A DNA stretch of 64,000 nt from assembly GCA_012295275.1 (NCBI GenBank), contig CM022672.1:18910001-18974000 (forward strand). Direction: 5' to 3'. Shown in pieces: positions 1 through 52,969 of this stretch (position 1 is its first letter; each line of letters starts with the position of its first letter). The position numbers and the translations under genes were made by a program. Under the pieces are notes generated by a model. It made no database searches and had not been told where the DNA came from. It saw only the letters and a program-made list of their open reading frames with translations. The DNA comes from Chrysomallon squamiferum (Eukaryota; Animalia; Mollusca).

Positions 1-88
1 ACGTTATACGTGAAAAATCTTTATAAAACGTTAATCGCTAGTCATTAATAGTTTAAGAAAGGACTACAAAGAAGCTGCAAACACTCAC

Positions 89-1981
89 CCCACGTGAATC
101 TGGAGAATAAGCATCAAGATTGTGAGTCTGATCCCGAGGTCCACCCATGTAGATGCGACTTTCTGGCGACACCTGGTAGAAGGCGTTGTCCTGCTCATTG
201 GGGTCAGCGTAGTGGACGTAATACTGACAGATGTGGGTATACGTGTCACCATCACGGGACGGGTCATTCCCGTAGATCTCAATACCGTATTCTCCCTTCT
301 GCGGCAGATTGGCATTGACCACAACTTTGTCGTTCTGGTCGTCATCCTGGATGTACTGCTCCAGCTCGTCGTCTCTCATTCCGTTCTTACGCAGTTTGGC
401 AAGGATGTATGCTGGCCTCGTCTTTTTGAATTCAAGTCTGACGTTTCCATCAGCACAAGCAATCACACCTTTAAAACCAGAAAAATATATTTATAGTATT
501 TTCATCAGTAGAACATCTGAATATCTGTCTTCGTTTTATTTTTCTTGGGATGCATTTACATTTTGATGAAATATTCTTTTCATACAGATAAATGCCAAAA
601 ATATTTTTATTACTTAAATATTTTACATAAAAAGTATACATCAATTTAGTTAATTATTTTTATTATTATTGTTTTTGTTTTTTATTAGTTTTAAAATTAC
701 AATAGGAAAAATAATAATATTATTCTTACAATTTATTATCCTTGAGATGATTTTAAATAAGAGAATTTAATACCTAACAACACTTCACTCTTTCAAAACT
801 GAAAACATTCTTTCCACGCAGTATAATTAGGCTACTACAACAATGAAAACATTACCTTGCGGAGGACTTACTTAAATATTTTATATAATAAGCATACAAC
901 AATTTAGTTAATTGTTTTTATTATTTCTTATTTATTCTGTTTTTTAATTACTGTTTTAAAATTACAAAAGGAAAAAATAAGAATATTATTCTTACAATTT
1001 ATTATCCTTGAGACAATTTTAAATAAGAGAATTTAATACCTAACAACACTTCACTCTTTCAAAAACAGAACAGATTCTTTAACCATAAATCCACAGAGTA
1101 TAATTAAGCTAAAACAATGCAATACCTTGCGGAGGACTTGCTACAAGACCCATCTGATCAACAGCAACGCCAGGACCCCAGCTGCTGTCAGAGCAGTTGG
1201 GCAACGGCACGGCATCAGAAGCTGGCTGGTCTGCCAACACCTTGTACTCAGCAGACGCAGTGAAGACGTTCTTCACACCCAGCTCTCCGGTCAACAGCTG
1301 AGCGAAGATGGTGAAGTAGTAAGGTCCTGCCCGGGGCGCTCTGAAGATGAACGTGCTGGTCTGGTTCCTTCCATGCTCCTGAAGAGAGAAATTCTTCAGC
1401 TTCTGCCCCTGGTAGGTCTCATCCCCAGAGTCGGCGAACGTGATCTTGTAGGTGAAGTTGGTCGGTTTTCCGTGGCCGAGGGTCAGCGCGATGCAGCCGT
1501 TCTTGGTGTTGACGACGCCCATGTGGTGGGAGATGAAGAACATGCCGCACTTGAAGAAGTAGGACTTGACGAGTGGGAGGTTTTCGAAGTCCTGCAGAGA
1601 GATGCTGCGTGTGAGGAGTTGCCATTCCTTCTTGTGGGCCCAGTGGCTGTAGATGAGTTGTTCTGGATCTGTCAGAAAGTAGAAGTCGTCGTATTCGTAA
1701 ACCTAGAAAAATGTAAAAAAGAAAATTCTGAAATGAATTTAAATCAATAAAATAGACAAAACAATTTTGTTATGTAATGTGTAATATCCATTCTGAACTG
1801 TTAAAAAGATATTATACAGTTCATTAGATAAAAGAAATGGTGTGAAGAATGAAAATAAAATATAGTAATATTTATGATATACTGACAGCATGGGCAACTG
1901 AAGCCATTCAAGTACATCCCCAAACACACACACAACAAAAAAAAGGAAAACGAGAGAAACAGAAATACGGTGTGTGAGAGA

Positions 1982-36635: not shown

Positions 36636-39469
36636 GTAAAAACTCCCATTAATTAAATAAAAATAAACTGATAATAATAATAATAATAATAATAATAATA
36701 GTCTCTTAAGAAATAAGATTTCAGTTATAAACAATTATTCTATTTAAAATTTATTTTTTAAATATTTTTTACACACACCTCATTTAAAACTTCAAATGCT
36801 ATCTGCACTGATCCACCACCCATGTCAATCATTCCCACTGTCCTGCGACGAATGTGAGTTTTTCCTTCACTACCAGGCAACCTGACACTGACAAGAGGAA
36901 AATCTTGAAAACAGAAAAAAAAAAAATATATATATATATATATAAATATAAAGTATAAATTATAAAATAATAAATTATAATTTATAAAAAAATTAATTTT
37001 ATTTATTTTTAATAAAAAATAAAATAAATAAATAAATATTAACAATAAAAAAACTAAACAAAGTAATAAAAAATCCTCCTCTCAAAACACACACAATTCT
37101 TTTAAAATAAATATATTTTTTATATGTCAGTAACTAGTGATCAAATCTATGATCATACAAATTACAGTTAAAATCTATTAGATGACTGCCATTTTTAAAA
37201 CAGTGTTATGGGTTTTTCTATAAACCACTCTTACATATTATCTAGTTTACTGAAAGGATGTAGTTGTAGTTCATTGTCTAAGATATGTTACATAACAGGA
37301 TCAAACCTCCAAATATATTGTATTATATTTTATTAACAAGGCCCTGACATATACTTTCCCATCTACAGGAAGGTGCATGAAAAAAAATATCCTTGCCATA
37401 AGTTATTAAAAGTAGCCTGTGGCAGTGGTTTTCTCTCATATCATCATTTTATAAAAACCGTATATTTAACATATAACCTAATTAAAATGTGATAAATAAC
37501 TTTCCTTCAAATGTAAACCACAAAACATGGCTTTTGATTCAGCAGTTAGAACAGGAAATAGCATCAAAAGGGCTCTGTGATTTCTTCAGGCAAGATATAA
37601 TAAGATTAACAGCTGGTTCCTTAATGAAGAAGTTTTGTTTTCAGCTTACCTGATGCACCATGTGAAAACCTTTCTAGGATGTAATTGACAGCTATCCATG
37701 CGTATACACCTTCCATCTTGCCACTGATAACTTCAAAATGGTTCTCAGCAACATGAAAATCAAACAGTTTGGGAATGTCTGTGAGCAAATCATTCAGAAT
37801 AGCTTGCTGGGCTCTGTGAAAATATATTGTAATGTAAATTAAAAACAAAAATACACTGACATGACCAAAACCTAAAGGAGAATGCAACATATAATAATAA
37901 TAACAACAACAAAAATAATAATTTTATCAGTCATTCATGTGAAACTTTTGTATTATTTTTTAACTCATTCAAGTTTTAGCAAAAAAAAAAAATAAAATAA
38001 AATAAAAAGAAAAGAATAAAAAAAAAAAAAAAAACTTTATTTTAATGATTTTAATCTGTATCAGTCTTATTACTAATGTGATCAAATCCAGTAATTCAAA
38101 ATTAATTTGATTATCAGTACTGTTTTTTCTGTTCCACCAATACATTTCATCATGTAGTCAGACTATGTCTGTATGAACTGACATTAATATGGCTTAATTA
38201 AGTTAAAACAGTGTTACATTTCACTTACTTTTTAGGAATCATTCTCATGCCTGCAGTTGCCAAGATGTAGAGCAATGTTTCTTTGTGCTGTGCTTTTGGG
38301 ATATACTTTGATGCAAACTCTAATAATGGTCGAATATGTTCACTAGCATCATGTGGTTTGTCCTCCAATTCGGAAATACCTGTTTAAACAAATGTTCATC
38401 TTTAAACATTTATGCTTTTCAGCTGCAAGTATAGATATACATATATAAATATCCATCTATTTATCTATAGGCCTATATCCACACACACACTCACCATGTA
38501 TATATATATATATTTAAAAAAAAAAAAAAAATAAATAACAAAAAAAAAAAAAAAAATGATATTAGTGAAAAGTAAAAACATCACAGATGAGCTATTCTTT
38601 TATTAAAATAATAAACTCTTACATCTTTATGTCTGATTGCAAACTACACTTTATTGATAGTCTATTGGTAATTTACAATCTCAGCTCAGAGGAAAAACTG
38701 TATACTGTATTTACCTGGTGTCACCTTCTTCATAACCAGATGTTCATTTTCATCTTTTAATTGCTGTATGTTCAACAGTTCTCTAGGATTTCCAGAATGT
38801 GGAGGCCAAAAGTAGACATAAACTCTGCTACCACTACTTCCACAGTCGATGACAATTCCATAATGTAGACTTTTTGTGGCCTTTTGATTGAGTGAGTTAT
38901 CGTCAGTGTCAGTCCTAGACCAATTATTTGATATACTAAGAGTCACTGCGGATACAAACAATACTAAAAGCCCAATGAATATCAGTACTACCAGAATCTT
39001 CATCTTTATCGTCAAAGTTTGAAACAGCATCAACTTAGAGCATGGCCAGACAAAATAAATTCTAAAATAAAATTGTACAATTAGTTTGCTTAATACATAA
39101 ATACATATAATTCTGTCAAGACTTTTTTTTTTATTTTATTTATTTATAAAGTTTGTAATATCTGTAAAAGTATAATAAAAGATTAGACGAATAGTGTCCA
39201 AGGGTATTTTCATACACTAATACTATTACAAGTATTAGTAATAGTAGTAATACAGATTATGATCTTGAACTAAACCGATTTAACTTTAGAATAAGAGAGT
39301 ATTCTTATAATATTATTTTATAATTGCATAACAAATATAATATTTACTTAATATAATTAAATACATTATCAATTATAATAAATTAATTTATCAATTTCTA
39401 ATTTCATACGATAATCATGATCTTCTTATTTCATTATGATTATTAACTTAATTAAATGTACCTTGCCAT
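33385..39469 (-). CDS. ENTPD4/7: Ectonucleoside triphosphate diphosphohydrolase 4/7-like (GDA1/CD39 apyrase), ~597 aa once a 1-nt frameshift in exon 7 is corrected
   Basis: Exons 39462-39469 (ATG GCA AG), 38715-39061, 38229-38379, 37650-37813, 36779-36903, 35996-36162, 35240-35560, 34811-34893, 34158-34319, 33385-33649. Apyrase conserved regions YGIVIDCGSSGSR, LATAGMR, ISGKMEGVYAW, DMGGGSVQI, WTLGA. N- and C-terminal TM segments. The NLGC...YVTTFLGFGAN and FYGFSEFWY motifs fit the ENTPD4/7 clade. Confidence 0.93.
37255..37510 (+). mobile_element. Degenerate SINE-like insertion in an ENTPD intron
   Basis: ctacaggaaggtgcatg...atccttgcc...aaagtagcctgtggcagtggttttctctc...aaataactttccttc; same core as the 24.6 and 28.4 kb copies. 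Confidence 0.55.
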
Positions 39470-47169: not shown

Positions 47170-49501
47170 TCAAAATGAGGGAATGTCAATAACAAGATCT
47201 TGAAATCCATCTTCTTCATCACTGTCATCAAATAACGGAGCAACAACAGCAAGAGGGTCACCTGATTTGGAACCTGAACGGCCACTACGAGTTCCAGACT
47301 TTGGCACTTTGCCCTTGGTGGTAGTGGCTCCGCTTATGGAATCCTTTGTGTCTGTACCAGCAGTACCACTGGCTGGCTTGCCAAGCTCTGGTGGTGGTCG
47401 AGACTTGATGTTAGCTTTTCTCTCAGAGTTAACAACAGTTCCTTTCTTTTTCTCCGGCTGTGTCTCCACACGCATGGCTGCACTTGGCACAGGTCGCTTT
47501 TTCAGTGGACCAGGAATATTAACAGGTTTAGTGTCTTCAGTTTTTTTGTCTGAGTCTTGAACCAGTGGTGTTTTTTCTTGAACTGCTGCTATGATTGGTT
47601 TCACGTCAGTCTCAGGTTTAGTTTCAGGTTTGGTCTCAGAGACTGTCTCACTGGCCTTGCTGCCTTCATTTGTGTCTGTGTTACATTCACTAGCTCCGTC
47701 TTCTGAAACCTCCACTGGTTCAAGTGTTTTGCCTTGCAGGAAACTGTCATGTTCAGAGCACACAAGAACGCCATCCACATTAAAAATGTTATGCTCTATA
47801 TGTGCGGGACAGAATGAATTTGGACACAGTGTACACATCTTTTTACTCTGCTTTCCACAAACATCACAATGATGCCAGGGACATAACCATTTACCTTATA
47901 TAAAAAGAAATTGGATATTGAAAATATATTGAAATATTTTTACATGGTTTAAAAAAAAAGGAGTAAAAATCAGATTTATAATGGTTAATACCATCATTTT
48001 CAAAAAAATCTTTTATATTTTTATGTCTAGGCCCTAAAACAAATATTATCCGACATCAACATAAATTTAAACCAAAAACAACAAATACCTGCTTTTTAAA
48101 AATGTTCAGAATGATAAGTTTATTTTAGTCTTTATTTAAATTTATCCCTGTTCATTTACATCAGTTTGAAGTCAGAAGACATTTTAATTACAGCATGTAT
48201 GTTTAACACTGGTACAGAAATAAAATAATTATTAATTACCAGGTGGTGGTTTGGTAAGTTTAAGACACTGCAGATGGTAGACTTTGGGACAACTGTTGTG
48301 ATCACACATAACCAGTTCTCCTCCTTCGCCACATCGGAAACAATCATCCTCGTGTTCTTTTTTCACCTCTATCTTCTTTTTTCTTTTCTTTTTCTTAGCT
48401 TCTTTGTTCTTCTTTTCTGTAGCAACAGCTGCAGCAGTCTAATGTTGATACAATAATCACATTAATAATTTTTCTGTTTGTAACTTTTTTGGTATCTCTA
48501 ACTGAAAGTATCATTAAAATTCAATAGTTTATTTATATCTTTACATCTATTAAAGAATTTTTTTTTCTAACTTTCAAACCTTTATTTTCCTGCAACAACA
48601 AATGTATATTTGGATTTTGAATATTTAAAGACTGAAATCATCAACTGAAGATATTTTTTATTCAATTCATTTGTTTGCTATCAATTAATATGAACAGAGA
48701 AAAGCCAGGTCACATTCAAGGTTCACAAACAAACTAATTTTATTAATAACTAATGATCTTACTTTGGGTCGGACACCAAGAAATCCACTGCAGTTTTCTG
48801 CTCCACAGTGACAAGTCTTCTTCTCATTACCCAGACAATCCAGATTGTAGTTAAATGTCAACTCTGACCCTGAAAACAGTAAACAGTTAACCTTACAGCA
48901 CATAACATTAGCTCAGATACTGAAGTATTTCTTTCTTTGTAAACAAATATAAATGTCAACAGAGAATAAAAATTTTAAATTTTATTTACGTCATTTTGTA
49001 AAAGTGAAGATGATAAATAATGTTTAGTAATGTTTATGAAAATAACAGAAAATTCGAACTAATATTAAAATAAACCAAACTATTTAAAACAATGGTAATT
49101 AAACAGAAAATCAGAATTAACTAAAAACAGCTGTAGAGATTTCTGCTATATGTATTTGTTGGTTCCATGTATATGCTTTGAAGAAAATAGTTCAGTGAAT
49201 GTTGCTGACTCAAATATTCCACAAAAATCAGATTATGCAGAAAGAAATTTGGTTCATCATTTAATGTTGCAACATTGCTCATCAATTACATCACTGAGTT
49301 GATGCAATCGATATCATAAGTTGCACAACTTGAAAATTAATAGTATGTAAACATCAGCTTCACCAATATTACATAAAACAAAAATGTTATCATCCCTTCA
49401 TTTACAGAACAGCTTGTTCTACAAATACCACAATTCTGCCACTAAACAATTCACTTTTTTCTTGGTGAAGTCAAATAAGATCAGTCACAGCAAATATTCA
49501 C

Positions 49502-49537
<36 letters not shown>

Positions 49538-52500
49538 AAAATCGACATTCAACACTGTTAGTTTGATTATTATTTTAAGCAAATAAAGAAGATGGCTAAG
49601 TGAATAATTTAGCAACATGCATAAAACAAAATAAAACTTTTGTGAACTATCTTGTGTAAATTGTTATTTAGCAAAATGACACCACAACACCTGTAAACTA
49701 CATATGATCATATCACTACACTTGAGAAAATAAAGCTATATACTACATGGTTTCATTTGTTTTATGGCAAACATTTCATAAAGTGTTGCTGACTCAAATA
49801 TTCCACAAAAATCAGATTATGCAGAAAGAAGTTTGGTTCATCATTTAATGTTGCAACATTGCTCATCAATTACATCACTGAGTTGATGCAATCGATATCA
49901 TAAGTTGCACAACTTGAAAATTAATAGTATGTAAACATCAGCTTCACCAATATTACATAAAACAAAAATGTTATCATTCCTTCATTAAAAGAACAGCTTG
50001 TTCTGCAAATACCACAATTCTTTGAAAATGCTGCCACTAAATGATTAACATTAATAATAATAAAAAACCCACTGTTATACAACTTTGCAGTTTGTTAATT
50101 TTATTAAGTAAATAAAGTTGTCTAAACAAATAATTTAATAACATGGATAAAACAAAATAAAATGTATGTAAACCATCTTAGTGTAAATTGTTATCTAGCA
50201 AAATGGCAATTATTTTGTCTTTAGAAAGGCCCCACAACATCTGTAAAACTACATATCATCTCACTTTAGAATATAAAGCTATATACTACATGGTTTCATT
50301 TGTTTTATGGCAAACATTTCCAAAGTGTTGCTGACTCAAATATTCCACAAAAATCAGATCCATGCAGAAAGAAGTTTGATTCATCATTTAATGTTGCAAC
50401 ATTGCTCATCAATTACATCACTGAGTTGATGCAGTCGATATCATAAGTTGCACAACTTGAAAATTAATAGTATGTAAACATCAGCTTCACCAATATTACA
50501 TAAAACAAAAATGTTATCATCCCTTCATTTACAGAACAGCTTGTTCTACAAATACCACAATTCTGCCACTAAACAATTCACTTTTTTCTTGGTGAAGTCA
50601 AATAAGATCAGTCACAGCAAATATTCACATTTATATATATATATATATAAAAAAATCGACATTCAACATTGTTAGTTTGATTATTATTTTAAGCAAATAA
50701 AGAAGATGGCTAAATGAATAATTTAGCAACATGCATAAAACAAAATAAAACTTTTGCGAACTATTTTGTGTAAATTGTTATTTAGCAAAATGACACCACA
50801 ACACCTGTAAACTACATATGATCATATCACTACACTTGAGAAAATAAAGCTATATACTACATGGTTTCATTTGTTTTATGGCAAACATTTCATAAAATAT
50901 TCCACAAAAAATCAGATTATGCAGAAAGAAGTTTGGTTCATCATTTAATGTTGCAACATTGCTCATCAATTACACCACTGAGTTGATGCACAAATATCAG
51001 CATCAGAAACTAAAATGAAAATATTTATCAACTTTTCCTTTATATAAGTTTATTCACTGATAACATTGTGATTCAAGTTATTAATTTTTGTCTCGGCTAA
51101 AATTAAATAATGGTTACCATGGAGCCAAGGAAAAGGTATTGCAATAACAAAATATAGAACTGTATGTGACAATACCAACACAATTTTTTTTAGGATTTTC
51201 AGTTGAGAAACAACTGTGGTAAATGTAAAAACTGGAAGAACTGAAAGCCAATGTTTGTCTTTTTTTTTTTTTTTTTTTACCATTTAAAAAAAAAAAAAAA
51301 AAATAATATATATATATTTTTTTTTTTTTTTATTGTGTAATGAGTTGTATATTTAATTTTTTTAAATCTCCCAAAAGTTGTTAATAGAAGAGTTATTTGG
51401 AAAAACAGACACAATTTCTTTTTTCTTGCTTCCAAAAATGATAATAAATCTAAATGTGTGAAGAATAAAGAAAGTTTATTGACAGCAAATCAATAGCTAT
51501 ATATTGTTTCTTCAGTTATTATTGCAACATTGCTCACCAATTACAATACGAACGTAAAGCAATCAATATCATAAGTTGCCAGTATCTTTAATTTTTATCA
51601 GTAGTTGTTTATAGTTCAACATAGATTTTACTTAGTTTTAATAAAAAACTGAAAAAAAGGAAAAGAAATAATATCTAGATTACAACTTAAAATAATATAT
51701 GCTATTACAATTTGATCATGTAAAACTGGTCTTAATAAATCATTTTTGTATTATTATTAATACATTTAATATAAGTCCAAATAGTTTATTAGTGAAAATA
51801 TTTCTGCAACTTAGGTGATGAATAAAAACAAGAATAACAAGAAAAAAAAAACTGATACCAGTTTTCAGTTCAAGTAAAAGAAATTAATTCTATATTAATT
51901 CTTATTTCATAAATATAGGCATTTAAAGTCAAGTTCCCAATTTATTAAAATCTGTAAAATATTTACAATAATTAAAACAATAATGAATACAAACAGCAGA
52001 TATTCATATATTCTGTTTGCACAATCAGGAAAAATATAAATGTAAATGACATGTTGATGTATTCAACTGTTATGCACAAATAATTGAACACAGAGAAGTT
52101 TCGACCATCATTTAATGTAGCAACATTGCTCACCAATTATACCATGGATATGATGTAATCAATATCATAATTTGCATAGTCTACATGTATTCCAATCATG
52201 TTATCCAGATGAAACTTTATACTGACAGTGGAAACATTTCCCAGGTTTCAAAATGTAACTTTCTGAAACTTTCAAATATGTTTCTCTTTTAAAACAAAAA
52301 CAGCACAGTGTACCATTACTGTAAGTACACCTGTAAATGAATCAACTATGCTGCAGTACAAAACATGCAGACTAAAGTGTGATTCATCAGTCGATATTGC
52401 AACTGGTACACCAAATGCATCATGGACAACATGCAAATGGTATCATGAGTTGCATTTTATTTTTTAATACCTGAAAAAACAAATACCCATCAATTACAAA

Positions 52501-52969
52501 AACATTATTACCCACATAAATAAACTAAATGAGACCAGAATACACTTACCAGCAGGTATAAAATGGGAGGCAAACAACCCAACCCTGATGTCACCATTGA
52601 CCATCCACTTTTGTGTTTCACAATTTGGTTGACAACAGTGGTTCATAAACCTTGATAAATTTCCTTTGGGACCAGCATCAATAATTCTACAAAAATGCAA
52701 AATTACTCATTTAAATAATTGTTAATATTGATGGTATTATTATTTTTTAAGAAACAACAACTGATTAAATTATGAAATAAATTTATGCTGCACAATATTT
52801 AACAATGTATTTAGCTACTGACCTGTTTTTGTCAAGAGTCAACATGTAAAAGTTGGAAATATTTTCACTATGGGCTTTTTCTATTCGTCGATGACATTCT
52901 TCTTCATCAATGAGCTCGCCTACATACTCATTCACAAACTCACCCTAGGAGAGAAAAAAATAAAAAATG

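Follow-up and report, generated by a model that had tools for sequence, protein, structure and literature searches.

The question raised by this locus is whether a series of similar units in one intron of a gastropod NSD gene are genes for box H/ACA RNAs, as a sequence-only reading of the window (the whole 64-kb stretch of DNA analyzed here) had proposed. All six units of that proposal were found at the positions it had given, on the minus strand, which is the NSD sense strand, together with a damaged seventh copy, D (Table 1). The cluster sits within one spliced intron, whose joint is spanned by RNA contigs from both X6 and X7. When the six copies were used to build a profile HMM and a covariance model, these located exactly seven loci in the 64-kb window and nothing further of significance there (next best E 1.2 and E 0.22). 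When both strands of the window were scanned mechanically for the H/ACA layout, under thresholds set after the copies had been inspected, three of the six copies (B, E, and F) passed and no locus outside the cluster did. In our reading, the six paralogous units probably encode box H/ACA snoRNAs that would be trimmed from the excised intron and guide pseudouridylation through a conserved 5′ pocket, and they likely form a new orphan H/ACA family in an intronic cluster of the Drosophila type.

Table 1. Positions in the window of the H/ACA-like copies, their spacers, and the surrounding NSD exons and introns, in the direction of NSD transcription.
Feature	Position	Strand	Remarks
Intron after the exon with the E1099-equivalent residue	52687..52822	-	136 nt; splice joint in RNA contigs; by position the counterpart of the human ACA11 intron
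NSD SET-domain exon 5′ of the cluster	52550..52686	-	aligns to human NSD2 1127-1171
Host intron, NSD SET domain	48870..52549	-	3,680 nt, GT-AG; splits the codon equivalent to human NSD2 G1172
Copy A	52329..52455	-	H box AUAUCG 52397-52392 (imperfect), ACA 52334-52332; most diverged
Copy B	52049..52177	-	H box 52118-52113, ACA 52054-52052; 5′ hairpin and H box matched by second-species contigs
Copy C	51452..51580	-	H box 51522-51517, ACA 51457-51455
Copy D	50895..51008 (approximate)	-	5′ lower stem disrupted; 15-nt deletion takes out the ACA box
Copy E	50323..50453	-	H box 50394-50389, ACA 50328-50326
Copy F	49781..49910	-	H box 49851-49846, ACA 49786-49784; identity 97% to E, 99% to G
Copy G	49197..49326	-	H box 49267-49262, ACA 49202-49200; likeness to E/F ends at the ACA box
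Three duplicated spacers	49327..50894	-	D-E 50454-50894, E-F 49911-50322, F-G 49327-49780
NSD exon 3′ of the cluster (SET end and post-SET)	48763..48869	-	read from sequence and RNA contigs

Because E, F, and G are 96–99% identical to one another, the six units come down to four independent lineages (A, B, C, and E/F/G). Identity among these lineages is 64–82% in the 5′ hairpin, 55–68% in the 3′ half, and 43–60% in the 60-nt flanks. The predicted hairpin-H-hairpin-ACA layout and its spacing recur in all four diverged lineages, consistent with the H/ACA architecture read earlier from the sequence. An ANANNA H box lies directly 3′ of the first hairpin in five of the six units, the exception being copy A. 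In every unit, ACA follows the second hairpin, 63–66 nt after the start of the H box and 3 nt from the sequence-defined end of the unit, so the similar H-to-ACA spacing described before is upheld. The chance of meeting ACA in a given 4-nt stretch of the intron is 0.082, or approximately 5e-5 for four lineages if they are independent.

Folding gave a mixed picture. The G-U pairs favor the sense strand, as had been claimed, with a better fold than the antisense in all six units and in 11 of the 12 hairpins. The two-hairpin form is the minimum-energy fold of the whole unit in five of the six; the full-length fold of copy B is not of the H/ACA form (z -0.01), and each half of it alone folds as a pocketed hairpin. 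Whole-unit z-scores were -3.40, -0.01, -2.12, -1.09, -2.42, and -1.99. Both hairpins of copy A are stable and the 3′ side of its 5′ pocket differs from that of the other copies, those of E, F, and G do not exceed shuffles in the stability of the 3′ hairpin (z about 0), and in copy C the distance from the opening of the 3′ pocket to ACA, approximately 19 nt, is too great for a guide. The 5′ hairpin is divided by a 6 × 6 internal loop, and its predicted pocket opens 12–13 nt before the H box; since the usual distance from pocket to box is approximately 15 nt (PMC6049503), the top of the upper stem would have to open. Within this hairpin, 91.6% of cells are paired, and two double-sided changes occur among 20 pairs. 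Covariation among the copies, a check proposed with the original claim, was not significant, with 33 and 37 of 500 shuffles as high for four independent sequences, and the RNAalifold covariation term was 0.01.

A second species, organism B, bears on whether the units are under selection. Its contigs on 52106–52176 (7 and 6 in two runs of one sample) keep 33 of 34 nt, a single difference, over the right arm and the H box, with 7–8 differences in 56–61 nt for the hairpin as a whole, while its NSD exon contigs differ from the window at 19/204, 16/120, 23/131, and 48/240 nt (9–20%). This retention of the core while the exons diverge points to selection on the 5′ hairpin and the H box. Past the match, the contigs carry the same 7 nt as the 3′ lower stem of copy E, and one flank has a 14-nt word in common with the E–F spacer, where chance would give 0.004 per query and strand. 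In one contig, two parts that each resemble a copy are joined. Depths of 47–64 on the copy contigs versus 12–15 on the exons roughly suggest three to four copies among the contigs of organism B. Copy A and exon 52550–52686 had no organism B contig, and this was not counted as evidence. Two other matches, from motif searches for homologues, were discarded: a metagenome match (L001), which has no H box after it and no model match and was taken as chance, and an unrelated viral match (L059).

The spacers record how the array grew. E, F, and G recur with a tandem period of 543–584 nt; being above 500, this period keeps the array out of the Tandem Repeats Finder output. Spacers D–E and F–G are 96–100% alike save at a TA run; spacer E–F is 96–100% alike near the RNA units and 24–82% alike in its middle. 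The likeness from tandem duplication ends at the RNA unit, and no second H/ACA family was found in the spacers that follow D, E, and F, which gave no two-hairpin fold (z -0.3 to -0.5). The recent E/F/G duplication and the duplicated spacers agree with the view that the family is still expanding by paralogous copies. Judging from these sequences, the array likely expanded through unequal crossing-over, which between neighboring copies would duplicate the spacer between them and leave unique flanks upstream of the first copy and downstream of the last, and later conversion would homogenize the unit and its near flanks. Copy D appears likely to be a pseudogene and would be a broken by-product of array growth, and copy A may be drifting.

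On the model of established H/ACA biology, dyskerin, NOP10, NHP2, and GAR1 would bind the H and ACA boxes, and exonucleolytic trimming would proceed to ACA+3. An endonucleolytic cut between copies would also be needed because several copies lie in one intron. The pattern of divergence suggests that function would be carried by the 5′ pocket, UUAUGAUA / UGAGCAAU in B, C, E, F, and G, and that the 3′ hairpin may be retained mainly as a scaffold for the ACA box.

An rRNA guide pairs through its pocket over at least 8 bp around a U approximately 15 nt from the box, and we looked for such a target. The rRNA library was a surrogate from other eukaryotes (6,540 nt and 1,499 U sites, with gaps at 361–561 of the 18S model and 2174–2236 of the 28S model). 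In this library, the shared pockets gave no rRNA site common to the copies above shuffled controls: the shared 5′ pocket scored 22 on the strict scale against a null median of 23 (40 shuffles) and 26 on the loose scale, equalled by two of ten shuffles, and the shared 3′ pocket scored 16, the null median. Two single-copy scores exceeded all ten shuffles: the 3′ pocket of B reached 38 where the null peaked at 29, and the 3′ pocket of F reached 32 where it peaked at 28. Both sites are on the 28S fragment L028 of the surrogate library. We set these sites aside because they are not common to the other copies and L028 is of unspecified eukaryotic source; moreover, the segment with the B site is presumably variable, and the F site depends on an additional U that we take to be usually missing in animals. 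The joint-best site for the 5′ pocket, 18S U100, was rejected, being unmodified in human according to Table 1 of PMC6182160. A rough pairing by eye against U1, U2, U4, U5, and U6 gave one-sided matches only. In the human snoRNAome, at least four entries contain the 8-nt pocket word, and among the entries listed none is an H/ACA guide pocket. The consensus of the CAB box is UGAG. This motif occurs in none of the 12 apical loops, which leaves the scaRNA part of the original claim without support; the 5′ loop of E, F, and G contains UCAG.

Could the units instead be a non-functional local repeat, a decayed element or satellite-like array with incidental hairpins and boxes? The recent tandem duplication of E, F, and G with their spacers would fit, as would the absence of a target and of significant covariation and the Rfam result, in which no family reached the gathering threshold over the whole 64-kb window and searches by E-value returned weak matches only, among them snopsi18S-841 (E 6.7) and SNORA1 (E 5.5). 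However, the distance to ACA is fixed in four lineages although the 3′ halves barely exceed background identity, and the core is retained in organism B. There is also no sign of a high-copy dispersed repeat, either elsewhere in the 64 kb or in the DNA-contig depth of the window species, where 83.7 over copy A and 85.4 over copy C compare with 72–73 over exons in a comparison at 80% likeness that would miss dispersed copies of lower identity; this exon-like depth argues against a high-copy repeat. We regard an incidental repeat as very unlikely. It is most improbable, too, that the 5′ hairpin serves as a microRNA precursor or that the 3′ half is a box C/D RNA. One arm is far better conserved than the other in organism B, as in microRNAs, but the hairpin is interrupted by its internal loop, conservation continues via the H box into the next stem, and Rfam searches matched no microRNA family. 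E, F, and G do have AUGAUGA and CUGA, and they score 22 bits on SNORD18, at best 22.2 (E 0.03 when 146 nt were searched), against a gathering score of 41; yet the word resembling a C box forms the base-paired lower stem of the 3′ hairpin, and in B and C it has altered along with its pairing partner. Moreover, no terminal C/D stem was seen by eye, and copy C is without C/D motifs. Reading the conserved UGA motifs as a K-turn or SECIS element was rejected, as by eye that register breaks the stem.

Another explanation accepts the units as H/ACA RNPs and holds that a stretch of the intron survives as a longer RNA with H/ACA ends, a sno-lncRNA like SLERT (for example from E to G, 1,257 nt), exonucleases halting at the outer copies and no endonuclease parting them efficiently. 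Among the contigs listed, both RNA runs have contigs on the spacers between 49363 and 50873, including the single-copy E–F stretch 49948–50302, where depths were 4.5 and 10.3 compared with 18.2 and 11.9 for the spliced mRNA contig. Two or more snoRNAs in one intron can leave SLERT and other sno-lncRNAs in mammals (PMC11028025); in the snail, several predicted snoRNAs share one intron, and contigs cover the spacers between copies. These contigs give neither strand, ends, and size nor level, both runs come from one study, the same picture would arise from DNA carry-over or from an ordinary processing intermediate, and near-identical spacers collapse, so that D–E and F–G are indistinguishable. 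The runs had no depth at 51015–52421 (copies A, B, and C) or 49005–49205, which was not counted as evidence. We consider such a persistent RNA unlikely. There is likewise only an outside chance that an orphan H/ACA family under strong selection and with no rRNA target has tandem copies capping a stable remnant of the intron, 1.3 kb long and running from E to G; this would be an invertebrate counterpart of the H/ACA-ended SLERT, made from the NSD SET-domain intron adjoining that of ACA11. A spacer-containing RNA, if stable and snoRNA-ended, would raise the importance of the cluster.

Human NSD2 also hosts an orphan H/ACA RNA, ACA11 (SCARNA22; Rfam family RF00427), which resembles the snail units in its length of approximately 128 nt and its place in a SET-domain intron of an NSD gene, and an ancient NSD–H/ACA relationship had been suggested as one possibility. 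Our results do not support it. The introns are not the same: the human ACA11 intron follows the exon with E1099, and the cluster intron follows the next exon (NSD2 1127–1171, which we take to be exon 19). In the snail counterpart of the ACA11 intron (52687–52822), the covariance model found no family copy and the mechanical H/ACA scan no match. RF00427 was absent at E ≤ 10 in three Rfam searches, and by eye the GC-rich human ACA11, a single-copy RNA, has only a 7-nt word in common with the units, at a different structural position; their loops are without UGAG. ACA11 is also unlocated in Xenopus, marked '?' in one published table. It is thus scarcely credible that the family shares its ancestry with ACA11, having resided in NSD since the bilaterian ancestor and shifted by one intron, even though ACA11 lies immediately upstream of the counterpart of the cluster intron, the conservation of SCARNA22 is labelled 'Deuterostomes' in one table, and snoRNA copies do shift between introns of the same host (PMC2653536). 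If an orphan H/ACA RNA arrived independently in an intron of the NSD SET domain, that would be a curiosity pending further species.

Other known systems also offer parallels to the snail array. Huang et al. reportedly described intronic box H/ACA snoRNA clusters in Drosophila melanogaster in 2005. The earlier comparison with such polycistronic clusters stands, six copies lying in one spliced NSD intron of a molluscan host. The multi-copy intronic arrangement itself is already known from fruit flies, where such clusters are described as the rule (PMC3089462), with several sense-strand H/ACA genes per intron of a protein-coding host; unlike those, the snail units have a molluscan host, no target found, and no match among the Rfam families, those of Drosophila among them. 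The tandem scaRNA3/HBI-100 genes of Xenopus tropicalis (PMC6984369) are likewise paralogous H/ACA copies, 579 bp apart compared with 543–584 bp for E, F, and G, but they are verified U6-40 guides in a vertebrate, whereas the snail units are without Rfam similarity.

If the snail units are real H/ACA genes, they would constitute a family missing from Rfam, in a molluscan lineage for which the literature search found no snoRNA study. Their conserved pocket without an rRNA match is a concrete orphan-guide candidate for snRNA targets. The cluster would also have been caught in the middle of birth and death, with one intron holding four lineages of some age, the products of a recent triplication, and a pseudogene.

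Six H/ACA-like units of 127-131 nt (A, B, C, E, F and G) and one damaged copy (D) were found, as the sequence-only reading had described, in a single intron of the minus-strand NSD-family gene, and nowhere else in the 64-kb window. Each unit has the proposed layout hairpin-hinge-hairpin-ACA, with 63-66 nt from the start of the H box to ACA, and five of the six carry an ANANNA H box in the hinge, that of copy A being imperfect, as claimed. In the first hairpin (58-59 nt), an internal loop separates the 6-bp lower stem from an upper stem of about 14 bp. Because E, F and G are mutually 96-99% identical, the independent sequences number four: A, B, C and E/F/G. Across these lineages the first hairpin is the most alike (64-82% identity), followed by the 3' half (55-68%) and the flanks (43-60%). 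For each lineage, ACA would fall by chance in a given 4-nt slot with probability 0.082.

The sense strand gave a better fold than the antisense strand in all six units. The full-length fold of copy B is other than the H/ACA form, and in E, F and G the 3' hairpin does not exceed shuffled sequences in stability. Covariation among the copies is not significant: double-sided changes occur in 2 of 20 pairs, and 33 of 500 shuffles score at least as high. A mechanical H/ACA scan of both window strands, with thresholds chosen after the copies had been seen, accepted copies B, E and F alone.

The exon directly upstream of the cluster resembles the SET domains of NSD1, NSD2 and NSD3 and aligns to residues 1127-1171 of human NSD2, whose exon 19 we take to cover about residues 1125-1171. 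The host is a gastropod, since the nearest named relative of the AWS exon is the NSD2-like protein of Gigantopelta aegis (92%), followed by other molluscs at 64-75% (69 hits out of 95 candidates). RNA contigs from two runs span the splice joint of the host intron. About 80 nt into this intron, directly before copy A, a pyrimidine run ending in CAG is followed immediately by GT; it resembles a recursive-splicing site, without support from any RNA joint.

Contigs of RNA runs X6 and X7, which come from one study, lie on the spacers between copies, including the single-copy E-F spacer; they reveal neither strand nor ends nor level, and the samples may contain DNA. They are compatible with a precursor that is polycistronic and slowly processed, or with a candidate snoRNA-ended long RNA, and are no demonstration of a mature 130-nt RNA. 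In the available part of PMC11028025, SLERT is such a snoRNA-ended long RNA, which the snail contigs would fit.

Positions of features in the window and of one match elsewhere
Feature	Position	Strand	Remarks
Exons of another gene	53-1702	-	presumably like hillarin or a Kyphoscoliosis-peptidase transglutaminase-like protein, by eye
Exon with hydrophobic N-terminus and DCGSSGSR motif	38686-39135	-	presumably like NTPDase/apyrase of the GDA1-CD39 family
Host intron	48870-52549		GT-AG
Block of ~130 nt upstream of E, F, G	49327-49460, 49911-50040, 50454-50590
X6, X7 RNA contigs (among the pieces listed)	49363-49491, 49548-49977, 49947-50302, 50273-50519, 50491-50618, 50662-50873
14-nt word in E-F spacer	50187-50200		also at 50774-50787 and 49660-49673
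Match to organism B	52106-52176		first hairpin and hinge of copy B
Pyrimidine-CAG/GT site	52470-52471	-
Intron at the counterpart of the ACA11 position	52687-52822		136 nt
Motif match on metagenome contig L001	2166-2213		chance

The best evidence for function is comparative, namely an intronic 70-nt element that is more conserved than the adjoining coding exons. Contigs of run X10 from a second species, organism B, differ from the window by 9-20% on the NSD exons. Over the 671-nt stretch compared, 7/7 contigs of X10 and 6/6 of X11 (one sample) fall on copy B, where they cover its first hairpin and the hinge; one difference occurs in the 34 nt of right arm plus H box, and 7-8 in 56-61 nt across the hairpin. 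Past the match, the loose end opens with the same 7 nt as the second stem of copy E; an upstream loose end has a 14-nt word in common with the E-F spacer (expected 0.004 per query and strand). Around this word there is no H/ACA fold. One contig joins two copy-like parts, and contig depth, which is not itself a copy number, roughly suggests 3-4 copies in organism B; no contig connects them to an NSD exon.

The units had no Rfam match at threshold, and the scaRNA label found no support, as UGAG is in none of the loops. Targets were sought in a surrogate rRNA library of ten eukaryotic pieces (6,540 nt, two gaps) taken from bacterial genome assemblies. The 5' pocket shared by the copies reached a best strict score of 22, within the 20-27 obtained from 40 shuffles (median 23), and a loose score of 26 that 2/10 shuffles matched. 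Its joint-best site, 18S U100, was rejected, as human 18S has no pseudouridine there in Table 1 of PMC6182160, as excerpted. Two single-copy 3' pockets score above 10/10 shuffles, at sites not common to other copies. The eukaryotic rDNA contigs in several bacterial assemblies (L007-L013, L017-L019, L024, L027-L032, L043, L055, L056) are contamination. L001, GC-rich in its first 960 nt and AT-rich thereafter, is probably chimeric.

The human orphan ACA11 (SCARNA22) is placed in NSD2 intron 18-19 (PMC4055699) or intron 20 (PMC3674460), and E1099 in exon 18 of 22 or exon 20 of 24 (PMC12665890), in the available parts of these sources, so ACA11 comes after the E1099 exon. The counterpart intron in the snail has no family copy, and the cluster lies one exon further downstream. 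SCARNA22 is assigned to RF00427 (PMC4914119, in part), which gave no match at E<=10. ACA11 is classed as orphan, with '?' for Xenopus, in the excerpt of PMC6984369; PMC8629011, also available in part, gives further background. With RF00427 unmatched and a different host intron, the suggested ancient NSD-H/ACA host relationship found no positive evidence, and the neighbouring positions are a real coincidence.

Between the D-E and F-G spacers the likeness is 96-100%, a TA run excepted. The E-F spacer keeps 96-100% likeness near the units, to ~130 nt on their upstream side and ~50 nt on the downstream side, and falls to 24-82% in its middle. The similarity between G and F stops at the ACA box. 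Copy D has no upstream block, its 5' stem is disrupted, and its ACA was lost through a 15-nt deletion. The spacer pattern, the G-F boundary and the missing block in D fit an array that grew by unequal crossing-over between adjacent RNA genes, which would have taken two or more rounds and been accompanied by conversion near the units. The ~130-nt upstream block is 96-100% identical in E, F and G while the mid-spacers differ; it holds C-like and D-like words only ~30 nt apart, has no Rfam match, and is probably a conversion tract.

Huang et al. (2005) reportedly described intronic H/ACA clusters in Drosophila. The Drosophila-like arrangement is borne out by multiple units in one spliced intron, and the snail cluster would work like the intron-encoded box H/ACA clusters that are usual in Drosophila according to the available part of PMC3089462. 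Defining features of box H/ACA RNAs (PMC6049503), scaRNA context (PMC3884663) and snoRNA cis-duplication (PMC2653536) are covered in the accessible parts of those sources. Title-level literature searches, mostly without subscription journals, turned up no study of snoRNAs in molluscan NSD introns. Both the H/ACA RNA class and the arrangement are known, and the cluster is likely a new orphan member of that class.
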